DNA of 32,000 nt from Comamonadaceae bacterium M7527 (GCA_021044545.1 CP087990.1:2071038-2103037); one strand, 5' to 3'. Counted from the first letter of the stretch, positions 3,659 through 17,655 are shown. Notes: generated from the letters alone by a model not told the origin. Program-made: numbers and translations.

Positions 3659-3734
3659 GGCCCGGTAGCTCAGTTGGTAGAGCAGCGGATTGAAAATCCG
3701 CGTGTCGATGGTTCGATTCCGTCCCAGGCCACCA
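3659..3734 (+). tRNA. tRNA-Phe (anticodon GAA), 76 nt including encoded CCA
   Basis: Cloverleaf folded by hand: acceptor GGCCCGG/CCAGGCC (one C-A mismatch at 5:68), D arm GCTC-AGTTGGTA-GAGC, anticodon arm GCGGA-TTGAAAA-TCCGC, variable loop GTGTC, T arm GATGG-TTCGATT-CCGTC, then ACCA. Very similar to E. coli tRNA-Phe. Confidence 0.93.
3690..3734 (+). repeat. attL: 45-bp core repeat (anticodon loop to CCA of tRNA-Phe)
   Basis: The exact 45-mer ttgaaaatccgcgtgtcgatggttcgattccgtcccaggccacca recurs at 12610..12654 and 21528..21572. Identity stops exactly at the base 5' of ttgaaaa. Confidence 0.9.
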
Positions 3735-3740
3735 AATACT

Positions 3741-3775
3741 CACCGTAGTCTTGCAAAAGGCTACGGTGTTTTTGT
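3741..3775 (+). terminator. Island-borne rho-independent terminator directly after the reconstituted tRNA-Phe
   Basis: Stem caccgtagtc / ggctacggtg (8 Watson-Crick pairs, one G-U, one more pair), loop ttgcaaaa, followed by ttttt. Confidence 0.7.
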
Positions 3776-3812
3776 TTGTGCATCTCATTCTGCTAGTGCT
3801 GTGCAGTAGACG

Positions 3813-5021
3813 ATGCACAAGCTAGCCAACACTCACCATTGCACACCAACCACCACCATTCGCTTGCGTGACGGTGAGCTAGTCATTTACAAACGCAGCC
3901 GCAGCTTGCAGTACCAATGTCGCTACAAGCTAAGCGACGGCACTTGGACAAGAGCTAGCACTGGCAAAGCAGCTCTGGAGCACGCCATTGCTCGCGCATG
4001 TGATATCTACGATGAATCACGCTATCGACAGCGTCTTGGTTTAGCACACCGTGCACACTCTGTTGCACAGATTGCAGCTGTTTGCTGTGCTGAGCTACGG
4101 CAGCAGATAGATGCAAAAGGCAAGAAGACTGCGCTCAACGACTACTTGAGCATCATCGAGCGTTACTTTGTGCCTTACTTTGGCGAACGCTTGCTTGAAT
4201 CATTGACGCACACAGACATACGTGAGTTTGAGCTGTGGCGCGATAGGCCGCTGTCTAGAGCTCCAAAGACAAGCACGCTCAACAATTTCACAAGTGCTTG
4301 GAGCAGATTGACTGCAGTAGCTGTAGAGCGAGGCTACATCAGTGAGCGAGTACCACTGCCAAAGCCCACAAGCAAGGGCATGAAGGGCACTACACGAGCA
4401 GCATTCAGCGGCGACGAGATGACTGCACTGCTAGCGTTTATGGAGCAGTGGTGCAAGCAAGGTGTCAAAGCTGTTCAGCGTGAAATTCGCCCTTTGCTGC
4501 GCGACTATGTAGAGCTGCTGCTGTTTACTGGCATGAGGCACGGCACAGAGGCGATGAACATACGTTGGCGCGACATAGAGTGGCACACAAAGGATGGTGT
4601 GCGCTACTTGCGCATACACGTGAGTGGCAAAACTGGCAGCAGATGGTTGATTGCCAAACACGCAGCCGTCCATGCGCTGCAACGGCTGCACGCTAGACAA
4701 AGGGATGTTTGTGAGATGTCGTTTGAAACCCTGTTTGCAGCGCGAGTGCAACAACTGCTGTTCAGATACAGCGATGGACATCAGCCACACAGCTTGGTTG
4801 GCACGTTTCGCAAGCTGATGCGTGACAGTGGCATGCTCAAGAACACACAAGGGCAGAGTCGCACGCTGTACTCAATACGCCATACCTACGCCACGCTTGC
4901 ACTGTTGGAGGGTAGTGCAGACATACACACACTCAGCAAGCAGCTTGGCAACAGTGCAGCGATGATTGAGAGGCACTACAGCAAGCTCACAGCGACTATG
5001 GCAGCTGAGAAGTTGGCTTGA
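3813..5021 (+). CDS. Tyrosine recombinase / integrase, 402 aa (allele 1)
   Basis: Catalytic signature: Arg in LFTGMRHGTE, H-x-x-R in SIRHTYATLAL, Tyr in MIERHYSKL. Position is immediately next to the tRNA att site. Confidence 0.9.
   Translation: MHKLANTHHCTPTTTIRLRDGELVIYKRSRSLQYQCRYKLSDGTWTRASTGKAALEHAIARACDIYDESRYRQRLGLAHRAHSVAQIAAVCCAELRQQIDAKGKKTALNDYLSIIERYFVPYFGERLLESLTHTDIREFELWRDRPLSRAPKTSTLNNFTSAWSRLTAVAVERGYISERVPLPKPTSKGMKGTTRAAFSGDEMTALLAFMEQWCKQGVKAVQREIRPLLRDYVELLLFTGMRHGTEAMNIRWRDIEWHTKDGVRYLRIHVSGKTGSRWLIAKHAAVHALQRLHARQRDVCEMSFETLFAARVQQLLFRYSDGHQPHSLVGTFRKLMRDSGMLKNTQGQSRTLYSIRHTYATLALLEGSADIHTLSKQLGNSAAMIERHYSKLTATMAAEKLA
4717..4731 (+). promoter_or_regulatory. Motif site M5 (degenerate): tgtcgtttgaaaccc, inside int
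   Basis: 13/15 match to M1. Confidence 0.3.
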
Positions 5022-5024
5022 AGC

Positions 5025-5040
5025 TGTCGTTTAAAACCAC
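5025..5040 (+). promoter_or_regulatory. Motif site M1: tgtcgtttaaaaccac (TGTCGTTTNAAACSAC family)
   Basis: The 17-mer ctgtcgtttaaaaccac is identical at 5024..5040 and 7409..7425. Lies between the stop codons of int and the wHTH gene. Confidence 0.6.
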
Positions 5041-5044
5041 AACT

Positions 5045-5362
5045 CTAAGACGATCCTTCAAGCTGCTTCAAGTACTGGCGCACTTGGATAACACCGCGTT
5101 TGCTCAGACAGTAGTACTTCGCACGCTTGTCATGTCCATGTTGACGCTCTATGAGCTCAAGGCGCTCCAAGCGTTCCACGCTTCGCTTGAGTGTTGGCAA
5201 GGATGATTGGCACATCACATTTAAAGACTTGAGCATGAGCGCAGACGGATGAACGCGAAACAGTTCAAGCAGAACTGTTAACTCGTCACGTCTACTGACT
5301 GCCAAAACGCTTCGTTCAAACGATTGCGCTGACAAAACTCTTGCAGCTGTCTCAAAAAACAT
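5045..5362 (-). CDS. Small winged-helix (MarR/ArsR-like) DNA-binding protein, 105 aa
   Basis: LPTLKRSVERLERLELIERQHGHDKRAKYYCLSKRG looks like a recognition helix plus wing. Convergent with int and divergent from the micropeptide/Wzz-like operon across an AT-rich spacer. Confidence 0.6.
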   Translation of the reverse strand: MFFETAARVLSAQSFERSVLAVSRRDELTVLLELFRVHPSALMLKSLNVMCQSSLPTLKRSVERLERLELIERQHGHDKRAKYYCLSKRGVIQVRQYLKQLEGSS

Positions 5363-5542
5363 GCTGCGATGATGCAGTCATTTCATGGTCAAAGTAAAAA
5401 CTAAATGCAAAAACAGTATTTCAATAAAAAACAAAACGTTAAAAGATTTTTATGCTGATACATCACTGTTTTCGGCGCTAAATATTGCTAGACGCTATGT
5501 TTACGAGCTTACGCTAGGCGCTGTTTTTAGAACGACTTAGCA

Positions 5543-5656
5543 ATGAAAAAAATCAAATTTACCTTTGGAGCAAAGCTCGCTCTTGTGTCTGCTGTTGTTG
5601 GTTTTGGTGCCTCAGTGTTCTTTCTAATAAAAGAGATCACTAGAGGTATGGCATGA
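5543..5656 (+). CDS. 37-aa single-pass membrane micropeptide (MKKIKFTFGAKLALVSAVVGFGASVFFLIKEITRGMA), below the ORF-track size cut-off
   Basis: Translated by hand. Basic N-terminus, roughly 20-residue hydrophobic helix, short polar tail. Its TGA overlaps the ATG of the 514-aa gene (ATGA at 5653..5656). No clear SD, but the upstream region is AT-rich. Confidence 0.5.
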   Translation: MKKIKFTFGAKLALVSAVVGFGASVFFLIKEITRGMA

Positions 5657-7197
5657 ACGAGCAGCGATTTGAGTCTTCAGACGAAATTGATCTAGGTAGG
5701 TTCTTTACTAACCTTTGGAGTAAACGGCTAGTCGTTGTTGTGTTTGTGGTTCTTGGCTTTGCTGTTGGTGGTGTGCAAGGACTCTTTTCGCAAGCAAGCT
5801 CATTCACCAACACGGTTGCTACTGTGCATGTCAAGCTGAACTTCAAAGGTGCAGAGCTTGGCGAGTATCCAAACGGCTCCAAGTACGCACCAACAGATGT
5901 GATTGCGAGCAAAGTGCTCTCAAGGGTGTATCGAGCAAACAGCCTGGATGACTACGACATTGAGTTGGAGGAGTTTGTATCTGCAGTCAACGCTTATCCG
6001 TGGATACCTAACCAAGCTGCAATGGACGCTAAGTACGCGGATCTTTTTAGTGAAAAAAAGCTAAGCGCACTTGATCGTCAAAAATTGGATGAGCAGTATC
6101 AACAAGAAACACGAAACAGCAATGGCAGATTTTTGATGCTGCAGTGGAGTGGAGACTCAGCTGCAAAAGTGTCCAAAGCGGTTGCACAGAAAGTGTTGGC
6201 AGATATTCCTAAGCAGTGGGCTTCTGTGAGTATTCAAGAGTACGGCGTGTTGGATCTTGAGGTTGTAGTGCCAAGCAAGTTGGATCAGTATCTACTTGAT
6301 ACTGCTGAGTACATCGTCGTTGGTGACTACCTACGCGACTTTGCGAGACAATTAAAAGTGGCTGCACTTGCGTTACAGCAAGATGCTGTCGTAGCAGTTT
6401 TAAAAGACGAACAAACTCAAAGCACAGTTGGTGATGTTGGCAAGCTCATACTGAACTTAGAAAACTTTCACTTGAGTACGCTGCAGCGAACGTTCCTCAT
6501 TGCGCCGCCACGATCTAACGCTGAGGCGGCAAGTTTGTACTTGAGCAGTCGACAACGAGAGTTAGAAGAAAAAATTGCAGAAGCCGAGCGCAAGTCTGAC
6601 GTGATCAATCGCGTCTACCGCGAGTACACGGACAGTGCTGAGACGAAGTCGGCGAGTACTCAAAATGCTGCAGACAAAAATGGCAATTTATCGCCTCAAA
6701 TTGGCGACGACTTCTTGACAAAACTTATGCGTATTGGCGACGAACTATCTGATGCGAAGTACAAGCAAGACTTGCTGAAGGAGCGCAAAGAGTTGTCTTT
6801 TGAAGCCGCTGAGCTTGCAACTGAAAAGCAGCGTATTGAAGCTATTGTTGATGCATTGAGCCAGCCGCGCAGCGTGCAAGTTATCAGTAATCGTGAGGCA
6901 CTAGACAAGAGCGTTAGCTACGTGGTGTCTGAGCTCTCAAACTATGCACAGACATTGGACAGAATCAATCTTATGGCACGTGCTGCAAAGCTAGGGAAAG
7001 TTGGCTCGTTGTACGAAGTCATCAGAGCGCCACAAGTGAGCAGTAGCAGCGTTGATGCGCTAAAAGCTGCGGTGAAGAATGCGTTGTTTGGTTTGCTTGG
7101 TGGTTTGTTTCTTGGAATATTCGTAGCGTTTATTCGCGTTGTGTTGCAAGAGGCACGCTCGCCAAAGTCGTCATCAAACCATGTCGTTGCTGTGTAG
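5653..7197 (+). CDS. Wzz / polysaccharide co-polymerase (PCP)-like two-TM protein with a long coiled-coil periplasmic domain, 514 aa
   Basis: N-terminus SSDEIDLGRFFTNLWSKRLVVVVFVVLGFAVGG matches the classic Wzz N-terminal motif plus TM1. C-terminal APQVSSSS...ALFGLLGGLFLGIFVAFIRVVL is a Pro/Ser segment plus Gly-rich TM2. The region between them is rich in E/K/Q heptad-like sequence. AGAGG lies 6 nt before the ATG. Confidence 0.7.
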   Translation: MNEQRFESSDEIDLGRFFTNLWSKRLVVVVFVVLGFAVGGVQGLFSQASSFTNTVATVHVKLNFKGAELGEYPNGSKYAPTDVIASKVLSRVYRANSLDDYDIELEEFVSAVNAYPWIPNQAAMDAKYADLFSEKKLSALDRQKLDEQYQQETRNSNGRFLMLQWSGDSAAKVSKAVAQKVLADIPKQWASVSIQEYGVLDLEVVVPSKLDQYLLDTAEYIVVGDYLRDFARQLKVAALALQQDAVVAVLKDEQTQSTVGDVGKLILNLENFHLSTLQRTFLIAPPRSNAEAASLYLSSRQRELEEKIAEAERKSDVINRVYREYTDSAETKSASTQNAADKNGNLSPQIGDDFLTKLMRIGDELSDAKYKQDLLKERKELSFEAAELATEKQRIEAIVDALSQPRSVQVISNREALDKSVSYVVSELSNYAQTLDRINLMARAAKLGKVGSLYEVIRAPQVSSSSVDALKAAVKNALFGLLGGLFLGIFVAFIRVVLQEARSPKSSSNHVVAV

Positions 7198-7214
7198 CGT
7201 GCCAAAGTCCAAAT

Positions 7215-7248
7215 AAAAAGCCACTAGTGTTGAGCTAGTGGCTTTTTT
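7215..7248. terminator. Bidirectional rho-independent terminator between the convergent Wzz-like and AAA+ genes
   Basis: aaaaagccactag - tgttgag - ctagtggcttttt: a 13-bp perfect stem with A-run and T-run flanks. Confidence 0.8.
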
Positions 7249-7263
7249 GTTGTCTGACTAGGA

Positions 7264-7971
7264 CTACTTGCTAGCAGCTTGTTTGATGCTGTTGAGTGCT
7301 GCTCTCGCAGCTGCATTGCCGCGCTGCACTTTTAGCATCAAACGCTGCAAGCTGAACATCACATTCCTAAACGAGCCATTGTTGCCACTGATGGCAGCTA
7401 ACAGTTGACTGTCGTTTAAAACCACTTCTGCATCGCTTGCCATGCGTCGAGCGATTGGCAAAAACTCAGCATCTGCTGCTGCGTTCATCTCTATCAACAC
7501 GCATCTATCCTTCAAACCCTTGTCTAACGCTGCGATGTTGTTGGTGGTGAGGATGAACACAGCACGCTTGTTGTTGAGCACTGTTTTCATGCTGCCTTGT
7601 GCGAGCTTGCTCAAGTTATCCACCTCATCAAAAATCAAGTAGTGCAAACCACTCGCATTCAAAGATTGCACGTTCATCATCTTTTTCACAGACTCCATAA
7701 TCGTCGTGTTTGTATGCCCTTGCTGACAGCCAAAAAACTCAGCCTCCATTGCCAACGTGTCTTGTGTCTTGCCAAATTCGATAGCAGAAGGTAGCAAGCG
7801 TGCAAGCGTTGTCTTACCACTGCCAAATGTGCCATACAGCAAAATGCCACTCTTGCCTTCGTATGGAAAAGGTAAGCTGCCACTGACAATGTCTTCAATC
7901 AGTTCGCGTGATTCGTCGTTTCCAAAGACAATTTCGTCGATGGTGGTAGGGGTATATTCAAATTTGTTCAT
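7264..7971 (-). CDS. Clamp-loader (RFC small subunit / T4 gp44 / RarA)-like AAA+ ATPase, 235 aa, lacking most of a collar domain
   Basis: YTPTTIDEIVFGNDESRELIEDIV, then Walker A LLYGTFGSGKTTLARLL, Walker B YLIFDEVDNLSKLAQ, sensor-1 FILTTNN, and KDRCVLIEM in the position of the RFC SRC arginine-finger motif. Collinear by eye with T4 gp44. Confidence 0.75.
   Translation of the reverse strand: MNKFEYTPTTIDEIVFGNDESRELIEDIVSGSLPFPYEGKSGILLYGTFGSGKTTLARLLPSAIEFGKTQDTLAMEAEFFGCQQGHTNTTIMESVKKMMNVQSLNASGLHYLIFDEVDNLSKLAQGSMKTVLNNKRAVFILTTNNIAALDKGLKDRCVLIEMNAAADAEFLPIARRMASDAEVVLNDSQLLAAISGNNGSFRNVMFSLQRLMLKVQRGNAAARAALNSIKQAASK
7410..7425 (+). promoter_or_regulatory. Motif site M2: tgtcgtttaaaaccac, inside the AAA+ gene
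   Basis: Exact 17-nt match with M1. Confidence 0.6.
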
Positions 7972-8009
7972 GTTTGTCTTTCGTTTGTTGATTTGTTGGT
8001 TGGTTATGT

Positions 8010-8735
8010 TTAAGCTGCTAGCTTGAAAGCTTCAGCGTTTTCGCTGTACATCGACAGCAGTGCAGCGTTCAGTGCAGTCGCTGAGCGAACGATTGACTTG
8101 ATTGCAAAGCTGCCATCTGCTTGCTGCTCTGCAATCAGCACACACTCTTCGCCAACATAGTTGCTGTCGCTCATTTCACTCAGCTGTTTAGAGCTAACGC
8201 TTCCAAGTATTGGCATGCTTGAGATATGTTCTTGCATCATTTCTGCTTTGATTTTTGGACTGATGTACGTGGCACTCTTTGACAAGCGAACTTCTTGTAT
8301 GCCACCACGCTGTTCAATCCAATCTGCCAAAGCACTTGGCAATACACCTTCCTTCTGTGCACTTCGCAGCACAAGCGAGTACGTGCTAACACGTCGTCTG
8401 TCTACATCGCCAAATACTGCTTTAACGATACGTGTCATCAGTGGACTTTCACGTTTAACGACTAGCTTGCGTTCCTTTAAAAACGCTTGCAGTTCATTGG
8501 CACGCTGCTTCGCAGCAGACACCTCCAAAGGAGCTCCATAAGACAAGCAGTCAGCAAGTACGCTATACAGCTGTTGGTTGCTTGTGCGAAAAGCGTTGTT
8601 TTGCCATTGCGTGCGTTTGTTCTCCATTGCTTGCAGTGAAGCTGCAGCTGTCATGTCAAATGCTGCCTCATTGGTAGCTGTTGCTGAAGTGTGTGTGTCG
8701 TTTGAAACGACAGCTGATTTGGTGGTAACTTGCAT
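8010..8735 (-). CDS. Unknown 241-aa protein, first gene of the operon with the AAA+ ATPase
   Basis: Long ORF with protein-like composition. ATG at 8735 is preceded by GGAG with a 6-nt spacing (the ORF-track start at 8747 is a TTG). There is a 38-nt gap to the ATPase gene. I recognise no family. Confidence 0.65.
   Translation of the reverse strand: MQVTTKSAVVSNDTHTSATATNEAAFDMTAAASLQAMENKRTQWQNNAFRTSNQQLYSVLADCLSYGAPLEVSAAKQRANELQAFLKERKLVVKRESPLMTRIVKAVFGDVDRRRVSTYSLVLRSAQKEGVLPSALADWIEQRGGIQEVRLSKSATYISPKIKAEMMQEHISSMPILGSVSSKQLSEMSDSNYVGEECVLIAEQQADGSFAIKSIVRSATALNAALLSMYSENAEAFKLAA
8696..8712. promoter_or_regulatory. Motif site M4: tgtcgtttgaaacgaca, a perfect 8+1+8 palindrome near the 5' end of the 241-aa gene
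   Basis: Read directly from the sequence. Sits 24-40 nt inside the ORF from the ATG at 8735. Confidence 0.6.
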
Positions 8736-8836
8736 AAAAATCTCCAAAATATCGTGTAAAAAATTATCGTTTGCATTATTGCTTGCGATGTAATAATTAT
8801 ATTAAAATCAACGTTTTACAGCCATAAACGTCTTAC

Positions 8837-9613
8837 GTGCTAGTATTAGATGTTAAGAATATGAGAAGATATTTTTCAGCACCAACTCCACGCTTTGGTA
8901 AGCAAAGCAGTCGTTTGTCGATTGGTAATCAGCAGCGCAGCCCTTACTATTGGTGGTGGCAGTACTTGCGTCGTAACGCTGACTACATAGCGTGCTGTGA
9001 GCGTGGTGGCAAAGGTAAGCTTGCAAAGCTCTACGCTGACTTTGGTGACGTTCGAAACGACAACTTCCACGAGTGGTGGACAAGTAACGATAGGGGAGTA
9101 ACGCTATTCGCTGAGCAACATTTGGCAGTGCGTTTTGGCGAGTTGGCAAGCGCTGAGCAGTGGCAAGCTAGTTGGCACGCTGATGATGTGCTTGTGGTGG
9201 CTGTACCTTTGGAGATGAGCAAGCGTTCTATCAAGTCTGCGTTCGGCAAGCTATTAGATAAACGACACACAGACGTTAAACGTGGACGTCCATCTATTGC
9301 AAAGCTGAAAGAACACAGTACTGCTCTATATGCGCTAGAGCGCAACTACACCATTAATGGTTTGCAAAACACATTGGCTGTTTATGACTTGTGGATAGAC
9401 AATCAAGCACGCAGCAAAGCAGATAAATTGGCACTGTGGCAAATAGCTGCAGAGCTGAAGCTAAACAGAGCTGCAATCAAAGACGCGACGAGTGACGATA
9501 GTGGCGATAGATTGAGTGGACGTAACACGCTTGGGGCTACTGTGCACCGCTATGTCACGCAAGCCAAGCGCATCATTGGCAATACAGCAAAGGGCAAGTT
9601 CCCCTTGTCGTAG
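8837..9613 (+). CDS. 258-aa protein with W-rich xxLRRNxxY motif (transcriptional-regulator-like domain, DUF6499/FseA-like); true start may be the ATG at 8861
   Basis: RSPYYWWWQYLRRNADYIACCE resembles the W-x-EFLRRNP-x-Y signature of the N-terminal domain of FseA-type ICE activators (from memory). Divergent from the 241-aa/AAA+ operon across an AT-rich spacer. The 8837 start is a GTG. Confidence 0.55.
   Translation: MLVLDVKNMRRYFSAPTPRFGKQSSRLSIGNQQRSPYYWWWQYLRRNADYIACCERGGKGKLAKLYADFGDVRNDNFHEWWTSNDRGVTLFAEQHLAVRFGELASAEQWQASWHADDVLVVAVPLEMSKRSIKSAFGKLLDKRHTDVKRGRPSIAKLKEHSTALYALERNYTINGLQNTLAVYDLWIDNQARSKADKLALWQIAAELKLNRAAIKDATSDDSGDRLSGRNTLGATVHRYVTQAKRIIGNTAKGKFPLS
9046..9062. promoter_or_regulatory. 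Motif site M7: tgacgttcgaaacgaca (15/17 match to M4), inside the 258-aa gene
   Basis: Read directly from the sequence. Confidence 0.4.
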
Positions 9614-9616
9614 CTG

Positions 9617-9632
9617 TGTCGTTTTAAACCAC
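9617..9632 (+). promoter_or_regulatory. Motif site M3: tgtcgttttaaaccac, between the 258-aa gene stop and the short recombinase stop
   Basis: 15/16 identical to M1/M2. Lies 3 nt from the recombinase gene's 3' end. Confidence 0.55.
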
Positions 9633-9634
9633 GC

Positions 9635-10207
9635 TCAAACCAACTCGACAGCTCTGCGCTTCACATCATCATTGACAGTGATGTAACGCTGTGTGGTTGC
9701 AATGCTCTTGTGACCAGCAAGTGAAGCAAGCACAAACACGCTGACACCTTGACTTGCGAGTGACGTTAAAAACGTCTTGCGTCCACTGTGACTGCTTGCA
9801 CCTTTGATGCCAGCAGCTTTGAACAACCAGTAAAAGTGCTGTGACAGCACGTTGGCGCTGAATCCCTTGCGTGCACCACTGTAAGTTGTGAACAGTGCTT
9901 GCTCCTCCTCGTACCACTTGCGCGAGTTGATGTAGCACTGCAGTTCCTCTTGCAGTCGTGTGCTCACATACACAGTGCGTGCATGGTTGTGTTTGACGCG
10001 GTGAGCACCTAGATATATTTCTGCTCGAACCGTGCCGTTCGCATCGCGTACATCACACAGCTTCAAGTCTGCCACCTCGCTCACACGCAAACCACTCATC
10101 ACCATCATCAACAGCATCGCTCTATCGCGTGCTGCAAACTTGCGTGTGCTGATGTAGTCGAGTGTGTGCGCAAGTTCCGCGCTGGTTAGTGATTTAGCTG
10201 CAGCCAT
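9635..10207 (-). CDS. Short (190 aa) catalytic-domain-only tyrosine recombinase, FimB/FimE-sized
   Basis: Arg in MSGLRVSEVADL, H-x-x-R in SSHSGRKTFLT, H..Y in LAGHKSIATTQRYITV. GAGGAA SD lies 6 nt before the ATG. Confidence 0.8.
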   Translation of the reverse strand: MAAAKSLTSAELAHTLDYISTRKFAARDRAMLLMMVMSGLRVSEVADLKLCDVRDANGTVRAEIYLGAHRVKHNHARTVYVSTRLQEELQCYINSRKWYEEEQALFTTYSGARKGFSANVLSQHFYWLFKAAGIKGASSHSGRKTFLTSLASQGVSVFVLASLAGHKSIATTQRYITVNDDVKRRAVELV

Positions 10208-10617
10208 TTGTGTTCCTCAAAGATTTTCAGTGTTGTTAGTGTGTTTTCATTGCCAGTGTTTGAGCAACCAAGTCCGTTCAATTTGGCGGTGCTTTGATGA
10301 GTTGTAGGTTTTCAACGCACTAGCACTTGGTTCACGAACTTTGTGTGTTCTCTTTGGCTGTGTATTTAGCTGAACGCTGCTGCGCTCTGCAAGCGTTTTG
10401 ATATATGTGCTGCTGCTCAGCTCTTCATGCACCTCTTTTATGCGCTTAGACGAAGGATTTGACGTGTTTGCGTGTTGTGCTCGCTGTGCTCACAAATTCA
10501 TCTGCAGCTCAAATATTTCTGCTGCGCAAAAAGTTGCGGTGAAGTACTTACAGAAGTGAGGTGGTGATTTGCACTCGGTGCTGTTTGTGAAGTGCTTACA
10601 CTTCATTGGCAAGTAAG

Positions 10618-10635
10618 AGCAAGCAGCTGCTTGCT
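10618..10635. repeat. 18-bp perfect palindrome AGCAAGCAGCTGCTTGCT in the low-coding region
   Basis: Read directly from the sequence. Overlaps a second palindrome, TGCTAGCA. Preceded by the hairpin gaagtg-ctta-cacttc (10589..10604) and the direct repeat gaagtacttaca / gaagtgcttaca (10541 and 10589). Confidence 0.7.
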
Positions 10636-11001
10636 AGCAGTTCGCTCGTCGCTCTCTGCTGTGCTCTTCTGTCTTTTGACATGACTGTTTTGGAAATGTT
10701 TCGAGCAAACGACGGCTATGTCGCACAGTGTGCGAACAGTAGCTGTCGTTGTAGTCTGTTCCGTATAAAGTCCGTCGCAGTACAAGCATGAGTGAGTTTG
10801 ACGGAAGACGTATGTATTAAAACTTCCAAACTGCTTCAGCATTGGTTTGCTTTGCAGATACTCAGCGGCACTCTCGTTCTACACAGCCTTCATGCCAACT
10901 GTGTAGTGATTGCAAAGTCATTAGCCGTCATATTTCCCTTTGCGTTTTTAGCCTTTGATAGCGCAGTGCTTTATCTGCGTGGTGTTGCCTTGGTGTTTGC
11001 C

Positions 11002-11355
11002 TTAGTGTTTGTTCTGTCTGTGCTGCCTGAACAATCGCTTGTTAGCTCGTGTGCAGATGTTGAGCACTTGGTAGGCACGCTTGTCGCTCAGTCGCGCTCG
11101 TTTGCGTTTGTTCTGGATGCACTTGAGGTAGTCGCCGAGTACCGTAGCTTGCTTACTGTCTATAAGCTCAAGCTGCGCATGCTCTGCGTGAATGCCAAGT
11201 GTTCGCTTCGCAGCTGCTTGTGCTTTAAGGAGTAGTGCGTCTGTCGTTGCAAACGTCGCTGCAGCTAAGCCTCTTTGCTTTAGCCACGCATCAGTTGCTT
11301 CAGTGTCACGCAATGCACTTACTCGAATTTGATATTGCTGTTCTTGTTTGTTCAT
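11002..11355 (-). CDS. Possible ribbon-helix-helix-like small DNA-binding protein, 117 aa from the second ATG
   Basis: YQIRVSALRDTEATDAWLKQRGLAAATFATTDALLLKA has a strand-helix-helix pattern, followed by a basic C-terminus. Composition is far more protein-like than the antisense 147-aa ORF. No clear SD. Confidence 0.4.
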   Translation of the reverse strand: MNKQEQQYQIRVSALRDTEATDAWLKQRGLAAATFATTDALLLKAQAAAKRTLGIHAEHAQLELIDSKQATVLGDYLKCIQNKRKRARLSDKRAYQVLNICTRANKRLFRQHRQNKH

Positions 11356-11420
11356 GCAAGTATTTAGCATCTGCCAAACAAAACCTTGGCGAAACTGAAG
11401 CGTTGTTTGGCAATAAGTGC

Positions 11421-11440
11421 TGCAGTGCAGTGCAGTGCAT
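11421..11440. repeat. Pentanucleotide tract (TGCAG)x3 plus TGCAT, flanked by the inverted repeat aagtgc / gcactt (11415..11451)
   Basis: Read directly from the sequence. Lies in the divergent spacer between the RHH-like gene and the 146-aa gene. Confidence 0.7.
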
Positions 11441-11536
11441 GTGTGGCACTTTGACGCTCATCGCCTTTTTCGGTTGCTCAAGTTGTGGTGGTGACAACAC
11501 ACTAGCTGTATTGCAACTGCATAGGAACACAGCAAC

Positions 11537-11977
11537 ATGACAGCAACACTTGGCACTCTAAAGCTCACAGCAGCACAAAAGCCCTCGCACGTAACTCCAA
11601 TACAGCAGCGACGCAACAAACTGGCGAAGCGTTTGTTCGAGCAAGCTGAGTTGGCGAAAGCCCAACAACTCGGCTCAACATACAAACCAATCAAGTTCAA
11701 GACTGTTACGGACGCAGATGGTATGCGAAAGCAAGTGGAGCAGTACAAGACAGTGAAGGCGTGGTGGTTTACGGCAGACAACGGTAAGTTGGCACTGAGC
11801 GTGCGCTACGGTACAAAAGTGCTTGAGCTAGCAAAAGGCAGGTGGAGCGTTGAGGTAGCAAGCACACAAGAGCTTGTGCCAACGTTAGAGCTGATTAAAG
11901 CTGCGGTGCTAAACGGTGAGCTAGATGCTGCAATCGATGTTGCATCAGACAAATTGAAGCTTGGCTTTAAGCGTTGA
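11537..11977 (+). CDS. Hypothetical 146-aa protein
   Basis: Clean ORF with AGGAA 9 nt upstream of the ATG and balanced composition. No family recognised. Confidence 0.6.
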   Translation: MTATLGTLKLTAAQKPSHVTPIQQRRNKLAKRLFEQAELAKAQQLGSTYKPIKFKTVTDADGMRKQVEQYKTVKAWWFTADNGKLALSVRYGTKVLELAKGRWSVEVASTQELVPTLELIKAAVLNGELDAAIDVASDKLKLGFKR

Positions 11978-12038
11978 TGCAAGCGATGCAATCAAAGTCG
12001 CTCTGTAGATTGTCTTGTGCTGCGTTGATAAATACTCC

Positions 12039-12365
12039 ATGCAGTACAAGGAATTCAAAACGACATCACAGAGCGCAGCGCAATCAAAGCCAGCTTCGTC
12101 TAGCAGTGATGCTGCCAGCAACACAAAGCAAGGCAGCAAGCAGCGTGCAGCCAAGCGTGCACGCACTACTGCAAAGACACAAACGCTTGCGCAGATGCGC
12201 ATTCAGCATTTGCAAGACAAAGTCAAACACGCAAAGGCTGAGCTTGCGGCAGAGATTGCAGCGCAGCGTTTGGCGCTATCCAACAAGCAGCGTGAGCAAA
12301 AGCGTAGAGCACTACAGAGGCAGAGTCTGCAAGCTGTACAAGCTGCGAAGCGTGAGCAAGACTAA
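12039..12365 (+). CDS. Basic Lys/Gln/Ala-rich coiled-coil protein, 108 aa from the ATG at 12039
   Basis: QRAAKRARTTAKTQTLAQMRIQHLQDKVKHAKAELAAEIAAQRLALSNKQREQKRRALQRQ. It is the last gene before the att junction. Unit 2 has a 2-bp deletion that removes only the last 4 codons. Confidence 0.5.
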   Translation: MQYKEFKTTSQSAAQSKPASSSSDAASNTKQGSKQRAAKRARTTAKTQTLAQMRIQHLQDKVKHAKAELAAEIAAQRLALSNKQREQKRRALQRQSLQAVQAAKREQD

Positions 12366-12609
12366 GTGTCTTTCAAAACGTCACTTGCACAACCGTAGCA
12401 AAACCGCTGATAGCTGCACAGTTACGCTCAAGCAGCTTGTGCAGCTTAGACACGCTAGTGCAGTGCTGAGAGGCATAGTGCAAATGGTGCGAGCGCAGCA
12501 GCAGTGTGCTAAATGTTTTGTAGAAAAAACGTTGCAGAATTTCGCACACCAATCTGTTCCAAAGCAAAATCCAGTTGAAAAATTTAACTCTTTCGCACTC
12601 TTGTCAGCG

Positions 12610-12654
12610 TTGAAAATCCGCGTGTCGATGGTTCGATTCCGTCCCAGGCCACCA
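12610..12654 (+). repeat. Internal att (attP-like junction): 45-bp partial tRNA-Phe 3' copy between the two units
   Basis: Exact copy of 3690..3734. It lacks the 5' 31 nt of the tRNA, so it is not a functional tRNA gene. Confidence 0.9.
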
Positions 12655-12660
12655 AATATT

Positions 12661-12695
12661 CACCGTAGTCTTGCAAAAGACTACGGTGTTTTTGT
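12661..12695 (+). terminator. Copy of the island-borne terminator; the G-U pair of unit 1 is an A-U pair here
   Basis: caccgtagtc ttgcaaaa gactacggtg ttttt. Confidence 0.65.
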
Positions 12696-12732
12696 TTGTG
12701 CATCTCATTCTGCTAGTGCTGCGCAGTAGACG

Positions 12733-13941
12733 ATGCACAAGCTAGCCAACACTCACCACTGCACACTAACCACCACCATTCGCTTGCGTGATGGTGAGCT
12801 TGTCATCTACAAACGCAGCCGCAGCTTGCAGTACCAATGTCGCTACAAGCTAAGCGACGGAACTTGGACAAGAGCTAGCACTGGCAAAGCAGCTCTAGAA
12901 CATGCCATTGCTCGCGCATGTGATATCTACGATGAATCACGCTATCGACAGCGTCTTGGTTTAGCACACCGTGCACACTCTGTTGCACAGATTGCAGCTG
13001 TTTGCTGTGCTGAGCTGCGGCAGCAGATAGACGCAAAAGGCAAGAAGACTGCGCTCAACGATTACTTGAGCATCATCGAGCGCTACTTTGTGCCGTACTT
13101 TGGCGAACGCTTGTTTGAATCATTGACGCACACAGACATACGCGAGTTTGAGCTGTGGCGAGATAGACGGCTGTCTAGGGCACCAAAGACAAGCACGCTC
13201 AACACTTTCACAAGTGCTTGGAGCAGATTGACTGCAACAGCTGTAGAGCGTGGCTACATCAGTGAGCGAGTACCACTGCCAAAACTCACAAGCAAGGGCA
13301 TGAAGGGCACTACACGAGCAGCATTCAGTGGCGACGAGATGACGGCACTGCTGGCGTTTATGGAGCAGTGGTGCACACAAGGTGTCAAAGCCGTAGAGCG
13401 TGAAATTCGCCCTTTGCTGCGTGACTACGTGGAGCTGCTGCTTTTTACTGGCATGAGGCACGGCACAGAGGCGATGAACATACGTTGGCGCGACATAGAG
13501 TGGCACACAAAGGATGGTGTGCGTTACTTGCGCATACACGTGAGTGGCAAAACTGGCAGCAGATGGTTGATTGCCAAACACGCAGCCGTCCATGCGCTGC
13601 AACGGCTGCACGCTAGACAAAGGGATGTTTGTGAGATGTCGTTTGAAACCCTGTTTGCAGCGCGAGTGCAACAACTGCTGTTCAGATACAGCGATGGACA
13701 TCAGCCACACAGCTTGGTTGGCACGTTTCGCAAGCTGATGCGTGACAGTGGCATGCTCAAGAACACACAAGGGCAGAGTCGCACGCTGTACTCAATACGC
13801 CATACCTACGCCACGCTTGCACTGTTGGAGGGTAGTGCAGACATACACACACTCAGCAAGCAGCTTGGCAACAGTGCAGCGATGATTGAGAGGCACTACA
13901 GCAAGCTCACAGCGACTATGGCAGCTGAGAAGTTGGCTTGA
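12733..13941 (+). CDS. Tyrosine recombinase / integrase, 402 aa (allele 2; 8 amino-acid differences from allele 1, all in the first 221 residues)
   Basis: Same catalytic motifs as allele 1. Differences read from the ORF track: P11L, L128F, P145R, N157T, V168T, P184L, K214T, Q221E. Confidence 0.9.
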   Translation: MHKLANTHHCTLTTTIRLRDGELVIYKRSRSLQYQCRYKLSDGTWTRASTGKAALEHAIARACDIYDESRYRQRLGLAHRAHSVAQIAAVCCAELRQQIDAKGKKTALNDYLSIIERYFVPYFGERLFESLTHTDIREFELWRDRRLSRAPKTSTLNTFTSAWSRLTATAVERGYISERVPLPKLTSKGMKGTTRAAFSGDEMTALLAFMEQWCTQGVKAVEREIRPLLRDYVELLLFTGMRHGTEAMNIRWRDIEWHTKDGVRYLRIHVSGKTGSRWLIAKHAAVHALQRLHARQRDVCEMSFETLFAARVQQLLFRYSDGHQPHSLVGTFRKLMRDSGMLKNTQGQSRTLYSIRHTYATLALLEGSADIHTLSKQLGNSAAMIERHYSKLTATMAAEKLA

Positions 13942-13964
13942 AGCTGTCGTTTAAAACCACAACT

Positions 13965-14282
13965 CTAAGACGATCCTTCAAGCTGCTTCAAGTACTGGCG
14001 CACTTGGATAACACCGCGTTTGCTCAGACAGTAGTACTTCGCACGCTTGTCATGTCCATGTTGACGCTCTATGAGCTCAAGGCGCTCCAAGCGTTCCACG
14101 CTTCGCTTGAGTGTTGGCAAGGATGATTGGCACATCACATTTAAAGACTTGAGCATGAGCGCAGACGGATGAACGCGAAACAGTTCAAGCAGAACTGTTA
14201 ACTCGTCACGTCTACTGACTGCCAAAACGCTTCGTTCAAACGATTGCGCTGACAAAACTCTTGCAGCTGTCTCAAAAAACAT
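13965..14282 (-). CDS. Small winged-helix DNA-binding protein (copy 2)
   Basis: Identical translation to 5045..5362. Confidence 0.6.
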   Translation of the reverse strand: MFFETAARVLSAQSFERSVLAVSRRDELTVLLELFRVHPSALMLKSLNVMCQSSLPTLKRSVERLERLELIERQHGHDKRAKYYCLSKRGVIQVRQYLKQLEGSS

Positions 14283-14462
14283 GCTGCGATGATGCAGTCA
14301 TTTCATGGTCAAAGTAAAAACTAAATGCAAAAACAGTATTTCAATAAAAAACAAAACGTTAAAAGATTTTTATGCTGATACATCACTGTTTTCGGCGCTA
14401 AATATTGCTAGACGCTATGTTTACGAGCTTACGCTAGGCGCTGTTTTTAGAACGACTTAGCA

Positions 14463-14576
14463 ATGAAAAAAATCAAATTTACCTTTGGAGCAAAGCTCGC
14501 TCTTGTGTCTGCTGTTGTTGGTTTTGGTGCCTCAGTGTTCTTTCTAATAAAAGAGATCACTAGAGGTATGGCATGA
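14463..14576 (+). CDS. 37-aa membrane micropeptide (copy 2)
   Basis: Identical sequence to 5543..5656. Confidence 0.5.
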   Translation: MKKIKFTFGAKLALVSAVVGFGASVFFLIKEITRGMA

Positions 14577-16117
14577 ACGAGCAGCGATTTGAGTCTTCAG
14601 ACGAAATTGATCTAGGTAGGTTCTTTACTAACCTTTGGAGTAAACGGCTAGTCGTTGTTGTGTTTGTGGTTCTTGGCTTTGCTGTTGGTGGTGTGCAAGG
14701 ACTCTTTTCGCAAGCAAGCTCATTCACCAACACGGTTGCTACTGTGCATGTCAAGCTGAACTTCAAAGGTGCAGAGCTTGGCGAGTATCCAAACGGCTCC
14801 AAGTACGCACCAACAGATGTGATTGCGAGCAAAGTGCTCTCAAGGGTGTATCGAGCAAACAGCCTGGATGACTACGACATTGAGTTGGAGGAGTTTGTAT
14901 CTGCAGTCAACGCTTATCCGTGGATACCTAACCAAGCTGCAATGGACGCTAAGTACGCGGATCTTTTTAGTGAAAAAAAGCTAAGCGCACTTGATCGTCA
15001 AAAATTGGATGAGCAGTATCAACAAGAAACACGAAACAGCAATGGCAGATTTTTGATGCTGCAGTGGAGTGGAGACTCAGCTGCAAAAGTGTCCAAAGCG
15101 GTTGCACAGAAAGTGTTGGCAGATATTCCTAAGCAGTGGGCTTCTGTGAGTATTCAAGAGTACGGCGTGTTGGATCTTGAGGTTGTAGTGCCAAGCAAGT
15201 TGGATCAGTATCTACTTGATACTGCTGAGTACATCGTCGTTGGTGACTACCTACGCGACTTTGCGAGACAATTAAAAGTGGCTGCACTTGCGTTACAGCA
15301 AGATGCTGTCGTAGCAGTTTTAAAAGACGAACAAACTCAAAGCACAGTTGGTGATGTTGGCAAGCTCATACTGAACTTAGAAAACTTTCACTTGAGTACG
15401 CTGCAGCGAACGTTCCTCATTGCGCCGCCACGATCTAACGCTGAGGCGGCAAGTTTGTACTTGAGCAGTCGACAACGAGAGTTAGAAGAAAAAATTGCAG
15501 AAGCCGAGCGCAAGTCTGACGTGATCAATCGCGTCTACCGCGAGTACACGGACAGTGCTGAGACGAAGTCGGCGAGTACTCAAAATGCTGCAGACAAAAA
15601 TGGCAATTTATCGCCTCAAATTGGCGACGACTTCTTGACAAAACTTATGCGTATTGGCGACGAACTATCTGATGCGAAGTACAAGCAAGACTTGCTGAAG
15701 GAGCGCAAAGAGTTGTCTTTTGAAGCCGCTGAGCTTGCAACTGAAAAGCAGCGTATTGAAGCTATTGTTGATGCATTGAGCCAGCCGCGCAGCGTGCAAG
15801 TTATCAGTAATCGTGAGGCACTAGACAAGAGCGTTAGCTACGTGGTGTCTGAGCTCTCAAACTATGCACAGACATTGGACAGAATCAATCTTATGGCACG
15901 TGCTGCAAAGCTAGGGAAAGTTGGCTCGTTGTACGAAGTCATCAGAGCGCCACAAGTGAGCAGTAGCAGCGTTGATGCGCTAAAAGCTGCGGTGAAGAAT
16001 GCGTTGTTTGGTTTGCTTGGTGGTTTGTTTCTTGGAATATTCGTAGCGTTTATTCGCGTTGTGTTGCAAGAGGCACGCTCGCCAAAGTCGTCATCAAACC
16101 ATGTCGTTGCTGTGTAG
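14573..16117 (+). CDS. Wzz/PCP-like two-TM protein (copy 2)
   Basis: Identical translation to 5653..7197. Confidence 0.7.
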   Translation: MNEQRFESSDEIDLGRFFTNLWSKRLVVVVFVVLGFAVGGVQGLFSQASSFTNTVATVHVKLNFKGAELGEYPNGSKYAPTDVIASKVLSRVYRANSLDDYDIELEEFVSAVNAYPWIPNQAAMDAKYADLFSEKKLSALDRQKLDEQYQQETRNSNGRFLMLQWSGDSAAKVSKAVAQKVLADIPKQWASVSIQEYGVLDLEVVVPSKLDQYLLDTAEYIVVGDYLRDFARQLKVAALALQQDAVVAVLKDEQTQSTVGDVGKLILNLENFHLSTLQRTFLIAPPRSNAEAASLYLSSRQRELEEKIAEAERKSDVINRVYREYTDSAETKSASTQNAADKNGNLSPQIGDDFLTKLMRIGDELSDAKYKQDLLKERKELSFEAAELATEKQRIEAIVDALSQPRSVQVISNREALDKSVSYVVSELSNYAQTLDRINLMARAAKLGKVGSLYEVIRAPQVSSSSVDALKAAVKNALFGLLGGLFLGIFVAFIRVVLQEARSPKSSSNHVVAV

Positions 16118-16168: not shown

Positions 16169-16183
16169 GTTGTCTGACTAGGA

Positions 16184-16891
16184 CTACTTGCTAGCAGCTT
16201 GTTTGATGCTGTTGAGTGCTGCTCTCGCAGCTGCATTGCCGCGCTGCACTTTTAGCATCAAACGCTGCAAGCTGAACATCACATTCCTAAACGAGCCATT
16301 GTTGCCACTGATGGCAGCTAACAGTTGACTGTCGTTTAAAACCACTTCTGCATCGCTTGCCATGCGTCGAGCGATTGGCAAAAACTCAGCATCTGCTGCT
16401 GCGTTCATCTCTATCAACACGCATCTATCCTTCAAACCCTTGTCTAACGCTGCGATGTTGTTGGTGGTGAGGATGAACACAGCACGCTTGTTGTTGAGCA
16501 CTGTTTTCATGCTGCCTTGTGCGAGCTTGCTCAAGTTATCCACCTCATCAAAAATCAAGTAGTGCAAACCACTCGCATTCAAAGATTGCACGTTCATCAT
16601 CTTTTTCACAGACTCCATAATCGTCGTGTTTGTATGCCCTTGCTGACAGCCAAAAAACTCAGCCTCCATTGCCAACGTGTCTTGTGTCTTGCCAAATTCG
16701 ATAGCAGAAGGTAGCAAGCGTGCAAGCGTTGTCTTACCACTGCCAAATGTGCCATACAGCAAAATGCCACTCTTGCCTTCGTATGGAAAAGGTAAGCTGC
16801 CACTGACAATGTCTTCAATCAGTTCGCGTGATTCGTCGTTTCCAAAGACAATTTCGTCGATGGTGGTAGGGGTATATTCAAATTTGTTCAT
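16184..16891 (-). CDS. Clamp-loader-like AAA+ ATPase (copy 2)
   Basis: Identical translation to 7264..7971. Confidence 0.75.
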   Translation of the reverse strand: MNKFEYTPTTIDEIVFGNDESRELIEDIVSGSLPFPYEGKSGILLYGTFGSGKTTLARLLPSAIEFGKTQDTLAMEAEFFGCQQGHTNTTIMESVKKMMNVQSLNASGLHYLIFDEVDNLSKLAQGSMKTVLNNKRAVFILTTNNIAALDKGLKDRCVLIEMNAAADAEFLPIARRMASDAEVVLNDSQLLAAISGNNGSFRNVMFSLQRLMLKVQRGNAAARAALNSIKQAASK

Positions 16892-16929
16892 GTTTGTCTT
16901 TCGTTTGTTGATTTGTTGGTTGGTTATGT

Positions 16930-17655
16930 TTAAGCTGCTAGCTTGAAAGCTTCAGCGTTTTCGCTGTACATCGACAGCAGTGCAGCGTTCAGTGCAGTCG
17001 CTGAGCGAACGATTGACTTGATTGCAAAGCTGCCATCTGCTTGCTGCTCTGCAATCAGCACACACTCTTCGCCAACATAGTTGCTGTCGCTCATTTCACT
17101 CAGCTGTTTAGAGCTAACGCTTCCAAGTATTGGCATGCTTGAGATATGTTCTTGCATCATTTCTGCTTTGATTTTTGGACTGATGTACGTGGCACTCTTT
17201 GACAAGCGAACTTCTTGTATGCCACCACGCTGTTCAATCCAATCTGCCAAAGCACTTGGCAATACACCTTCCTTCTGTGCACTTCGCAGCACAAGCGAGT
17301 ACGTGCTAACACGTCGTCTGTCTACATCGCCAAATACTGCTTTAACGATACGTGTCATCAGTGGACTTTCACGTTTAACGACTAGCTTGCGTTCCTTTAA
17401 AAACGCTTGCAGTTCATTGGCACGCTGCTTCGCAGCAGACACCTCCAAAGGAGCTCCATAAGACAAGCAGTCAGCAAGTACGCTATACAGCTGTTGGTTG
17501 CTTGTGCGAAAAGCGTTGTTTTGCCATTGCGTGCGTTTGTTCTCCATTGCTTGCAGTGAAGCTGCAGCTGTCATGTCAAATGCTGCCTCATTGGTAGCTG
17601 TTGCTGAAGTGTGTGTGTCGTTTGAAACGACAGCTGATTTGGTGGTAACTTGCAT
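16930..17655 (-). CDS. Unknown 241-aa protein (copy 2)
   Basis: Identical translation to 8010..8735. Confidence 0.65.
   Translation of the reverse strand: MQVTTKSAVVSNDTHTSATATNEAAFDMTAAASLQAMENKRTQWQNNAFRTSNQQLYSVLADCLSYGAPLEVSAAKQRANELQAFLKERKLVVKRESPLMTRIVKAVFGDVDRRRVSTYSLVLRSAQKEGVLPSALADWIEQRGGIQEVRLSKSATYISPKIKAEMMQEHISSMPILGSVSSKQLSEMSDSNYVGEECVLIAEQQADGSFAIKSIVRSATALNAALLSMYSENAEAFKLAA

Follow-up and report, generated by a model that had tools for sequence, protein, structure and literature searches.

Clamp-loader-type AAA+ proteins have so far been known as parts of pentameric clamp-loading machines. In the replication modules of lambdoid phages, the second gene is exchangeable. In Acinetobacter pdif modules and in integron cassettes, cargo is bounded by short inverted-repeat sites that have the build of a recombinase core. 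Tycheposons carry a small replication module; their hallmark genes are primases, helicases and polymerases (bioRxiv 10.1101/2020.12.28.424599). This article examines a two-gene operon in a stretch of 32,000 nucleotides (nt) from Comamonadaceae bacterium M7527 (GCA_021044545.1 CP087990.1:2071038-2103037), referred to below as the window. The operon lies on an integrative island and encodes a clamp-loader-like ATPase, here a collar-less stand-alone gene that has long been kept, together with a second protein, termed the partner.

A widespread family of small integrative islands with cargo, so far undescribed, has the ATPase-partner pair as its conserved core; among described systems, none matches the pair. 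The reading favoured below is that the partner would recognise a palindrome that recurs along the islands, and that the ATPase would act at these sites. The features on which this rests are the following.

7264..7971, minus strand: open reading frame (ORF) of the ATPase, 235 amino acids (aa), ATG start.
7972..8009, minus strand: gap of 38 nt inside the operon, from the partner stop to the ATPase ATG, read directly from the sequence.
8010..8735, minus strand: ORF of the partner, 241 aa; its ATG at 8735 is preceded by the Shine-Dalgarno sequence GGAGA.
8697..8711: perfect palindrome GTCGTTTGAAACGAC in partner codons 9-13 (VVSND), the near-universal site of the family.
7411..7425: motif copy with 1 mismatch in ATPase codons 183-187 (VVLND).
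7915..7929: weak motif copy with 2 mismatches in ATPase codons 15-19 (VFGND).
5026..5040: motif copy just past the integrase stop.
9618..9632: motif copy flanked by the stops of the convergent genes for orf258 and the short recombinase.

A mechanical ORF listing starts the partner at TTG 8747 instead, which gives 245 aa. No terminator-like site lies between the partner and ATPase genes (7972..8009). An earlier, sequence-only reading of the window had described a two-gene operon of 241 and 235 aa with a 38-nt gap; both ORFs were found where it placed them, on the minus strand. The perfect copy of the dispersed palindrome that it saw in the 5' coding region of the partner is likewise there, at codons 9-13.

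Related loci were collected from look-ups and GTDB genomes (13 loci) and from metagenomes (80 loci). In every locus with room to judge (74/74), the ATPase gene stands directly 3' of the partner gene on the same strand, and this adjacency persists in far-diverged relatives in which the partner is only about 30% identical. The pair thus co-occurs outside this element; the opposite outcome, which the sequence-only reading had named as one that would refute it, was not observed. The surrounding genes are also constant. In 50 of 51 loci, the region 5' of the partner encodes, on the same strand, a short, catalytic-domain-only tyrosine recombinase (the short recombinase), and a DUF6641 gene was found in 15 of the 17 loci with room for it. 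A homologue of orf258 was detected by tblastn in divergent orientation upstream of the partner in 64/78 loci; the other loci examined have distant relatives with shared motifs at this position. The orf258 family evolves very fast (21-27% identity between groups, 230-337 aa), with the shared motifs Y..W..L..SP.Y, FGD...F..WW and A.NAARG.FP; Pfam returned no match for orf258 or for six members of its family. Integrase, ATPase, partner, orf258 family, short recombinase and DUF6641 therefore form a constant gene set around a variable slot, and because this set flanks the slot, the pair belongs to the island backbone and not to the cargo. One partner lineage has, instead of the ATPase, a protein of 529-532 aa (10041-11630 in locus L099 and 8071-9669 in locus L101). 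The two substitutes are 59.5% identical to each other, have no conserved Walker A motif, and gave no match in Pfam, NCBIfam, PHROGs or PDB sequences. Polymerase-like motifs in them were considered and rejected, with hhalign probabilities below 1% against T7 RNA polymerase, T7 DNA polymerase, T7 primase and T4 gp43.

The 235-aa protein is a clamp-loader-clade AAA+ module with domains I and II only, lacking the collar. Its match among the PHROGs is phrog_168, ‘clamp loader of DNA polymerase’ (E=1.5e-23, residues 5-215); the best NCBIfam matches are RFC large and small subunits (E about 1e-12) and DnaX, with scores far below the family cut-offs. A profile of 30 ATPase homologues matched RFC5, RFCS, gp44 and gamma among PDB sequences. 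The AlphaFold2 (AF2) model has a predicted local distance difference test score (pLDDT) of 85.9. When this model was searched with Foldseek, the best 50 PDB matches were all clamp-loader subunits (RFC, gamma, gp44); the top match is yeast RFC3 (8dr0_C, E=1.6e-12), and ‘RFC domains 1 and 2’, E. coli gamma and T4 gp44 are among the others. In hhalign, residues 2-207 align with residues 11-210 of the 319 residues of T4 gp44 at a probability of 96.3%. This alignment pairs YTPTTIDEIV with YRPSTIDECI (the N-terminal RFC box II), LTTNN with ITANN, and KDRC with QSRC.

Within the SRC arginine-finger motif, D takes the place of S (DRC), and the arginine itself, R156, is invariant. The same holds in all 30 homologues for Walker A (G47..GKT54), Walker B (D115, E116), sensor 1 (T142-N145) and sensor 2 (R202). 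Since the catalytic motifs are all invariant, the ATPase is predicted to be catalytically intact, active and dependent on an arginine finger and thus on oligomerisation. After the lid, the protein ends with a single long helix (201-233) at the point where gp44 and RFC continue into the collar, the part that assembles clamp-loader pentamers and that is therefore absent here. This length is the norm in the family: nearly all of the best 120 homologues listed have 231-262 aa. The list includes the AAA family ATPase recorded for M7527, which is 100% identical. As a functional clamp loader, the protein is thus deficient in several respects: it has no collar, no clamp gene, and no partner of the gp62, delta or delta-prime type. 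The clamp-loader motifs that had been picked out by eye, including DRC for SRC, and the truncation after the lid are both borne out by the gp44 alignment, the former also by the invariance among homologues and the latter by the model.

Several other identities were considered for the ATPase. IstB and DnaC appear neither among the Pfam matches up to E=0.1 nor among the best 25 NCBIfam matches listed at this limit, and clamp loaders rank first in the fold searches. TniB/TnsC was rejected as well, with a PADLOC match to TnsC at E=0.02, a match to AAA_22 at 24.3 bits (cut-off 27), and no DDE transposase in the backbone. The best sequence, profile and fold matches are in each case clamp loaders, so that IstB, DnaC and TniB, the identities that the earlier reading had named as refuting ones, do not apply. 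RarA/MgsA, the JGI name for many homologues, does not fit: nothing follows the lid, where the C-terminal tetramerisation domain of MgsA would be expected, and there is no RarA or MgsA_C match in Pfam. The only NCBIfam match of this type is PRK13341, named just ‘AAA family ATPase’ (E=0.009). In PADLOC-DB v2, the best match is TRIP13 (E=2e-5), restricted to the P-loop region. Among phages, tblastn found only genuine phage clamp loaders as relatives, at 26-30% identity, and the plasmid collection contained none.

The ATPase gene is itself a mosaic. Comparisons across 73 loci gave 52 significant pairwise change-points, and 37 of them place the jump in identity at codons 160-165. This is the boundary between AAA+ core and lid; in L013 compared with L009, for example, the genes are 71% identical before it and 97% after it. 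The lid seems to have been exchanged separately from the core.

The partner has no match in Pfam, NCBIfam, PHROG or PADLOC, and none among PDB sequences. Its AF2 model is mostly helical, with a pLDDT of 70.8 overall and about 85-90 in the core (31-180); fold searches of PDB and BFVD gave nothing with E below 0.05. The empty profile, PDB and fold searches uphold the earlier statement that the protein belongs to no recognised family. The family itself is large: a word-indexed search yielded 260 proteins, and a full scan with HMMER gave 1019 clusters (50% identity). Ten distant relatives were also searched against Pfam, with no domain found. The most conserved segment, FG..DRRRVSTYSLVLR.A, occupies two consecutive helices (99-108 and 113-128) and persists even at 25-30% identity. 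The N-terminal 30 residues are disordered and unalignable, apart from the peptide V-V-x-N-D. The partner was not found in 50,697 phage records, 72,556 plasmid records or IMG/VR. A sliding clamp was considered as its identity and rejected, the model being largely helical. In a protein of 3311 aa (P0320), 21 separate stretches match the partner profile, all of them to partner residues about 32-79; this suggests that the helical hairpin formed by these residues can occur as a repeat unit.

The dispersed motif consists of the half-sites GTCGTT and AACGAC around a variable triplet (GTCGTT-N3-AACGAC). When at most 1 mismatch is allowed, its 12-mer core has 25 occurrences in the window, where 0.55 would be expected; all but one of them (24) lie within the two copies of the island that the window contains. 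Related loci, 797 kb in total, have 0.5 sites per kb. Positions are conserved between loci. The site at partner codons 9-13 is present in 60/63 unique loci and, by position class, in 88/89 loci; the two positions in the ATPase gene, at codon 185 and codon 17, hold a site in 32 and 28 loci, respectively. The site just past the integrase stop recurs in about 25 loci and that between orf258 and the short recombinase in about 45. Further conserved positions are integrase codon about 303 and about 160 bp upstream of the integrase. Conserved sites also occur 12-40 bp past the stops of integrase, ATPase, orf258, short recombinase and DUF6641.

The codons that make up the palindrome in the partner gene are fixed: GTC in 51/56, GTT in 51/52, AAC in 55/56 and GAC in 49/50. 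For invariant V, N and D residues at other positions of this gene, codon use is mixed (N53 by AAC in 46 and AAT in 35 cases, D190 by its two codons in 41 and 41, and V107 by four codons). At the ATPase codon-185 site, fixation is partial (GTT 40/41 at codon 184); the codon-17 site shows a bias to GTC (32/37) and GAC (33/34). In fourteen loci, the motif has the variant form GTCCTT-N3-AAGGAC, in which both arms are altered symmetrically and the encoded peptide becomes V-L-x-K-D. Such a switch of motif class affects all sites of an island together. The fixed codons, set against the mixed codons elsewhere, and the symmetric change of both arms show that the palindrome is under selection as DNA. 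Two known kinds of site were considered for the motif and rejected. The spacing is unsuitable for a LexA box; as to a DNA uptake sequence, about 14 kb of host flanks contain one near-match only.

Which protein reads the palindrome can be judged from the two motif classes. The backbone proteins of 75 islands with the GTCG class and 14 with the GTCC class were compared. Residue 150 of the partner is K or R in 75/75 islands with G at base 4 of the half-site, and T or S in 14/14 islands with C. Residue 213 is K or R in 74/75 GTCG-class islands and Y or H in the GTCC class. The ATPase has no column that discriminates between the classes, and its phylogeny is discordant with motif class. The integrase has many such columns, which are attributed to a clade effect. 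The two GTCC groups have a common integrase, 99% identical, and the partner tree places them as sisters; the ATPase and the DUF6641 protein of each group are nearer to those of GTCG-class islands. The orf258 family is too variable, at the identities given above, to be the reader of a constant motif.

Far-diverged loci, in which the partner is about 30% identical, follow the same pattern. L099 has the motif GTCCTT-N4-AAGGAC with residues S150 and N213, and L100 has GTCGGT-N3-ACCGAC with R150 and R213. From the protein alone, a C-type motif was predicted for L101 and a G-type motif for L102, and both predictions held, with L101 and L102 each belonging to the lineage of the preceding far-diverged locus and not to a new one. 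In all, four lineage-specific motif variants track residues 150 and 213. Because these residues co-vary with motif class, the partner is probably the motif-binding protein. Among the three roles that the sequence-only reading had offered, an ATPase pair working with the dispersed motif fits best, on the strength of this co-variation.

The following mechanism is proposed. The partner would bind the GTCGTT-N3-AACGAC palindromes, probably as a dimer, and it probably controls its own operon, since one site lies within its own first 13 codons. The DNA-bound partner would recruit the ATPase to the palindromes, where the ATPase, as an ATP switch or loader, would assemble in its ATP state through the arginine finger. 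The assembled ATPase would then perform a loading or remodelling step on island DNA, and ATP hydrolysis would reset it. The purpose may be to start or maintain replication of the excised island, with the logic of an initiator and its loader as in lambda O-P, or in papillomavirus, where E2 brings E1 to palindromic sites. The fold and motifs of the ATPase, the obligate pairing of the genes, their place in the backbone, the selection on the palindrome as DNA and its co-variation with the partner are shown by the data above, while we infer the recruitment, the loaded or remodelled substrate and the role in replication. A replication role is placed first for several reasons: the ATPase is homologous to one that serves replication, nothing else in the backbone is a candidate for such a role, and the second gene is exchangeable (the 530-aa protein of L099 and L101 in place of the ATPase), as in lambdoid O-P modules. 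It is also favoured by the build of the island, which is like that of tycheposons with their small replication module. That the operon is a site-recognition and ATPase core, with the ATPase recruited to the palindromes and replication or maintenance of the excised island as its most likely purpose, is put forward tentatively, as a proposal with rather less than an even chance of being right in full.

Several observations weigh against this proposal. Confidence in it as a whole is held down by the lack of origin-like architecture: near the partner gene there is no iteron cluster, AT-rich unwinding element or DnaA-box enrichment. The sites are single and dispersed, not clustered, with one palindrome only in the 5' coding region of the partner. 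Searches of Pfam, NCBIfam and PHROGs found no polymerase, clamp, helicase or primase gene on the island; the first two absences had been pointed out before and are confirmed by these searches. No circular contigs were found as a sign of an excised, replicating island. Likeness to known replication proteins is also lacking: against hhalign profiles, the partner scores a probability of 0.05% as gp62 and 0.7% as a lambda O-type initiator, and similarity of the ATPase to lambda P is absent. To our knowledge, clamp-loader-clade AAA+ proteins do not act as initiators or helicase loaders. The co-variation of partner and motif rests on few independent lineages. Finally, the motif is found at the ends of islands and where modules join, which points to recombination instead and is set out below.

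The remaining features of the window place the operon in its island.

3659-3734: tRNA-Phe.
3690..3735, plus strand: attL, formed by the 3' 46 nt of tRNA-Phe; further copies at 12610-12655 and 21528-21573.
3813..5021, plus strand: island integrase, a 402-aa tyrosine recombinase adjoining tRNA-Phe (phrog_1 integrase, E=4e-31).
5653..7197, plus strand: cargo, a 514-aa Wzz-like protein (weak Wzz N-terminal match) in the variable slot between integrase and ATPase.
7215..7247: bidirectional intrinsic terminator that ends the operon and the convergent cargo gene; 14-bp stem with flanking A/T runs.
8736..8836: divergent AT-rich control region between the partner operon and orf258, read directly from the sequence.
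8770-8797: promoter-like site for orf258.
8837..9613, plus strand: orf258, a highly variable backbone gene, divergent from the partner.
9635..10207, minus strand: short recombinase, a catalytic-domain-only tyrosine recombinase of 190 aa (Pfam Phage_integrase, E=1.1e-26, residues 6-180).
11537..11977, plus strand: DUF6641 backbone gene (Pfam, E=4.1e-15).
16184..17655, minus strand: second, identical operon copy (ORFs 16184..16891 and 16930..17655).
18555-19127: second copy of the short recombinase in the tandem island.

The island of 8.9 kb is inserted at the 3' end of tRNA-Phe and has a G+C content of ~46%, compared with ~59% in the host. Two copies stand in tandem over 3690-21573, offset by 8920 bp and accompanied by three 46-nt att segments; the operon recurs at 16184..17655 as a result of this duplication. 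The copies are identical over 7.7 kb, with zero mismatches in 4605-12350. Their 43 differing positions all fall in 3739-4604 (integrase codons 1-264). In copy 2, the last island gene is split in two (20894-21283, 21270-21713) by an indel of 2 bp near 12351.

Between islands, the cargo slot differs most. It is empty in the smallest islands, L007, L009 and L010. In L096 (11609-17163) it holds a glycan-modification cluster of GtrA, UbiA, FAD-oxidase and short-chain-dehydrogenase genes, in L100 (3032-7775) a type III restriction-modification system, and in L102 (908-2284) a SIR2-domain protein. Across islands, its content is cell-surface or defence genes, the Wzz-like gene of the window included. 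The hosts are freshwater Betaproteobacteria (Polynucleobacter, Rubrivivax and metagenome-assembled genomes (MAGs) of Burkholderiales), together with one Methylococcaceae MAG and one Akkermansia-labelled bin. Insertion targets include tRNA-Phe, tRNA-Met and non-tRNA sites. In the literature, no paper was found that mentions DUF6641, and no description was found of the island family or of the gene pairing.

The closest rival to a replication role is control of recombination or mobilisation. In this case, the palindromes would be core sites of the island's tyrosine recombinases and junctions of cassettes and islands, the partner would mark them, and the ATPase would be an ATP-dependent matchmaker or regulator that hands the sites over, in a role like that of MuB, TnsC or IstB with DDE transposases. 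The most plausible recombinase is the adjacent 190-aa enzyme, which has no DNA-binding domain. The motif positions counted above against a replication role speak for it. In the L010 clade (L081, L086, L087, L089 and L093), which uses a non-tRNA target, a motif copy marks, on either side, the exact point where island homology stops. In L010 itself, these ends are at 5726 and 12760-12784, and the right end is a 25-bp perfect palindrome, GAAACGTCCTTTTAAAGGACGTTTC, which reads as GAAACGTCC-TTTTAAA-GGACGTTTC and so has the arm-spacer-arm build of a tyrosine-recombinase core site. In L010-type islands, the motif may therefore be the attachment site itself. The tRNA-targeting islands, such as that of the window, have no motif at their ends.

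Other observations bear on the same question. Blocks common to L057 and L080 begin or end at motif edges, and over the whole set 45 of 494 internal ends of homology blocks fall within 15 bp of a motif, against 8.7 expected. This enrichment is confined to intergenic copies, with clusters past the integrase stop, upstream of the integrase gene and beyond the short recombinase, whereas 0 of about 170 intragenic copies are at homology breakpoints; moreover, ends at motif edges are also expected if a conserved element closes the backbone blocks. At three junctions in L001 (16162, 17907 and 19316), a C-terminal fragment of the integrase meets a C-terminal fragment of the ATPase exactly at the palindrome. 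This array looks like the result of deletions between motif copies of tandem islands, such as the two in the window, which left cargo cassettes behind, but junctions of this type occur in one locus only. In the window, the cargo is bracketed by identical 17-mers, CTGTCGTTTAAAACCAC, at 5024-5040 and 7409-7425, both with the imperfect right arm AACCAC. The mosaic boundary in the ATPase gene is at codons 160-165 and not at the codon-185 site, which indicates ordinary homologous recombination. In favour of this role, motif class co-segregates with the integrase and the partner and not with the ATPase gene between them. Against it, the spacer triplet varies between sites, which would hinder strand exchange. 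We know of no AAA+ protein that works with a tyrosine recombinase. Taken together, recombination control is a possible but unlikely explanation of the pair.

The short recombinase deserves separate mention. It retains R41, H149, R152, H175 and Y183, as read from the sequence. MobK, MpsA and TcpM are tyrosine-recombinase-like relaxases without DNA-binding domains, and MpsA, a catalytic-only enzyme, requires a separate DNA-binding helper, MpsB (PMC8152469). This need for a helper and the presence of the short recombinase beside the pair in nearly all loci both speak for the recombination role. It has the MOB_M build: a catalytic domain only, no arm-binding or core-binding domains, and catalytic residues that are kept. 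As it is built like MOB_M relaxases, the island could be a mobilisable element. In an Azospirillum plasmid, the short recombinase adjoins proteins of 481 and 253 aa; these are unrelated to the pair or to orf258, and this context was set aside. A stronger version of the recombination explanation takes the short recombinase, orf258, partner and ATPase as a four-gene core that would form a new site-specific recombination machine, an integron- or pdif-like cassette platform with an ATP-driven matchmaker. In it, the ATPase and a separate subunit for DNA recognition would guide a tyrosine recombinase to the short palindromes at the borders of cargo cassettes and at island ends. This is unlikely, though it has a real chance; if true, it would extend an AAA+ matchmaker combination so far known only for DDE transposons.

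Next comes a global regulator, insulator or partition system. Here a KorB- or ParB-like partner on about 8 operators would silence or insulate transcription of backbone and cargo, or the sites would serve as a centromere, and the ATPase would modulate binding or spreading. In favour of this, the sites are single, dispersed at about 1 per kb, and conserved in position at the operon 5' end and past gene stops, and their fixed half-sites around a variable spacer suggest a dimeric DNA-binding protein. The near-universal site just inside the partner's own operon is placed as for autoregulation, but the L099 and L100 lineages have no site in the 5' region of the operon. Neither Pfam nor fold searches gave a ParB or KorB signal for the partner, and repressors need no AAA+ ATPase. 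The partition ATPases known to us are of the ParA, ParM and TubZ types, not AAA+. A role of this kind is quite unlikely.

An anti-phage function, in which the truncated gp44-like subunit would poison or hijack a T4-like clamp loader or clamp, or the pair would be a nucleoside triphosphatase sensor-effector system as the sequence-only reading had also offered, is very improbable: although the closest profile is the phage family phrog_168, with phage clamp loaders as relatives at the identities given above, and related islands carry defence-type cargo (type III restriction-modification in L100, SIR2 in L102), the pair belongs to the invariant backbone and defence genes to the variable slot, PADLOC yields weak P-loop-level matches for the ATPase and none for the partner, the catalytic residues are all kept, the ATPase is tied to an apparently DNA-binding partner with island-specific sites, and the phage, plasmid and IMG/VR collections lack the partner.

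To return to the preferred reading, in which the partner directs the ATPase to the palindromes: if the partner reads the 15-bp palindrome, the pair would represent a new use of the clamp-loader motor, tied to a protein of unmatched fold. The apparent recognition code, in which K/R or S/T at residue 150 tracks G or C at base 4 of the half-site, would make a simple protein-DNA specificity pair. The islands also matter in their own right. They move cell-surface and defence genes among abundant, streamlined freshwater bacteria (Polynucleobacter, Comamonadaceae), in which transfer routes are poorly understood.

How the pair stands among described systems can be summarised from the ATPase outwards. 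With T4 gp44, the RFC small subunits and gamma/tau, the ATPase has in common the fold, the clade, the YxPxTIDE box, Walker A and B, the sensors and an SRC-type finger (as DRC). Unlike these clamp loaders, it has no collar, and no gp62, delta, delta-prime, clamp or polymerase gene is nearby; its obligate neighbour is instead an apparent site-specific DNA binder. The build of the islands recalls tycheposons, with an integrase that lies at the tRNA end facing inward, repeats of part of the tRNA, tandem arrays, a conserved module with variable cargo, and streamlined planktonic hosts, although the island backbone is without their primase, helicase and polymerase hallmark genes.

In their relation to DNA sites, the islands resemble two further groups. 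As in KorB-OB and ParB-parS systems, a palindrome occurs about 8 times per island, partly within genes, and is apparently bound by a protein that the element encodes; in contrast to them, the partner has no homology to ParB or KorB and not their fold, and the companion ATPase is AAA+ and not ParA-type. As in pdif modules and integron cassettes, island homology blocks begin and end at motif sites. In contrast to these, the sites of the island also lie in frame in backbone genes and the recombinases are encoded by the element, with recombination at the sites as a possibility.

The closest parallels are modules that join a recognition protein to a second protein. Small AAA+ proteins such as TnsC (with TnsD/TniQ), MuB, IstB and TniB likewise stand beside recombination genes and a site-recognising protein; they differ in that the island has tyrosine recombinases and not DDE transposases, and the ATPase is outside their families. 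Lambda O-P, DnaA-DnaC and papillomavirus E2-E1 are, like the pair as read here, two-gene modules of a site-specific binder and a second protein that acts at its sites. In the case of lambda, the likeness extends to a site within the coding sequence of the first gene (the ori iterons lie inside O, according to annotation) and to the exchangeable second gene. The pair differs from O-P, DnaA-DnaC and E2-E1 in having no similarity to O or P, in an ATPase of the clamp-loader clade and not of the DnaC or SF3 type, and in sites that are dispersed and not gathered at one origin. A member of none of these groups, the ATPase-partner pair appears to work most like the adaptor-plus-AAA+ modules, namely O-P, E2-E1 and TnsD-TnsC.

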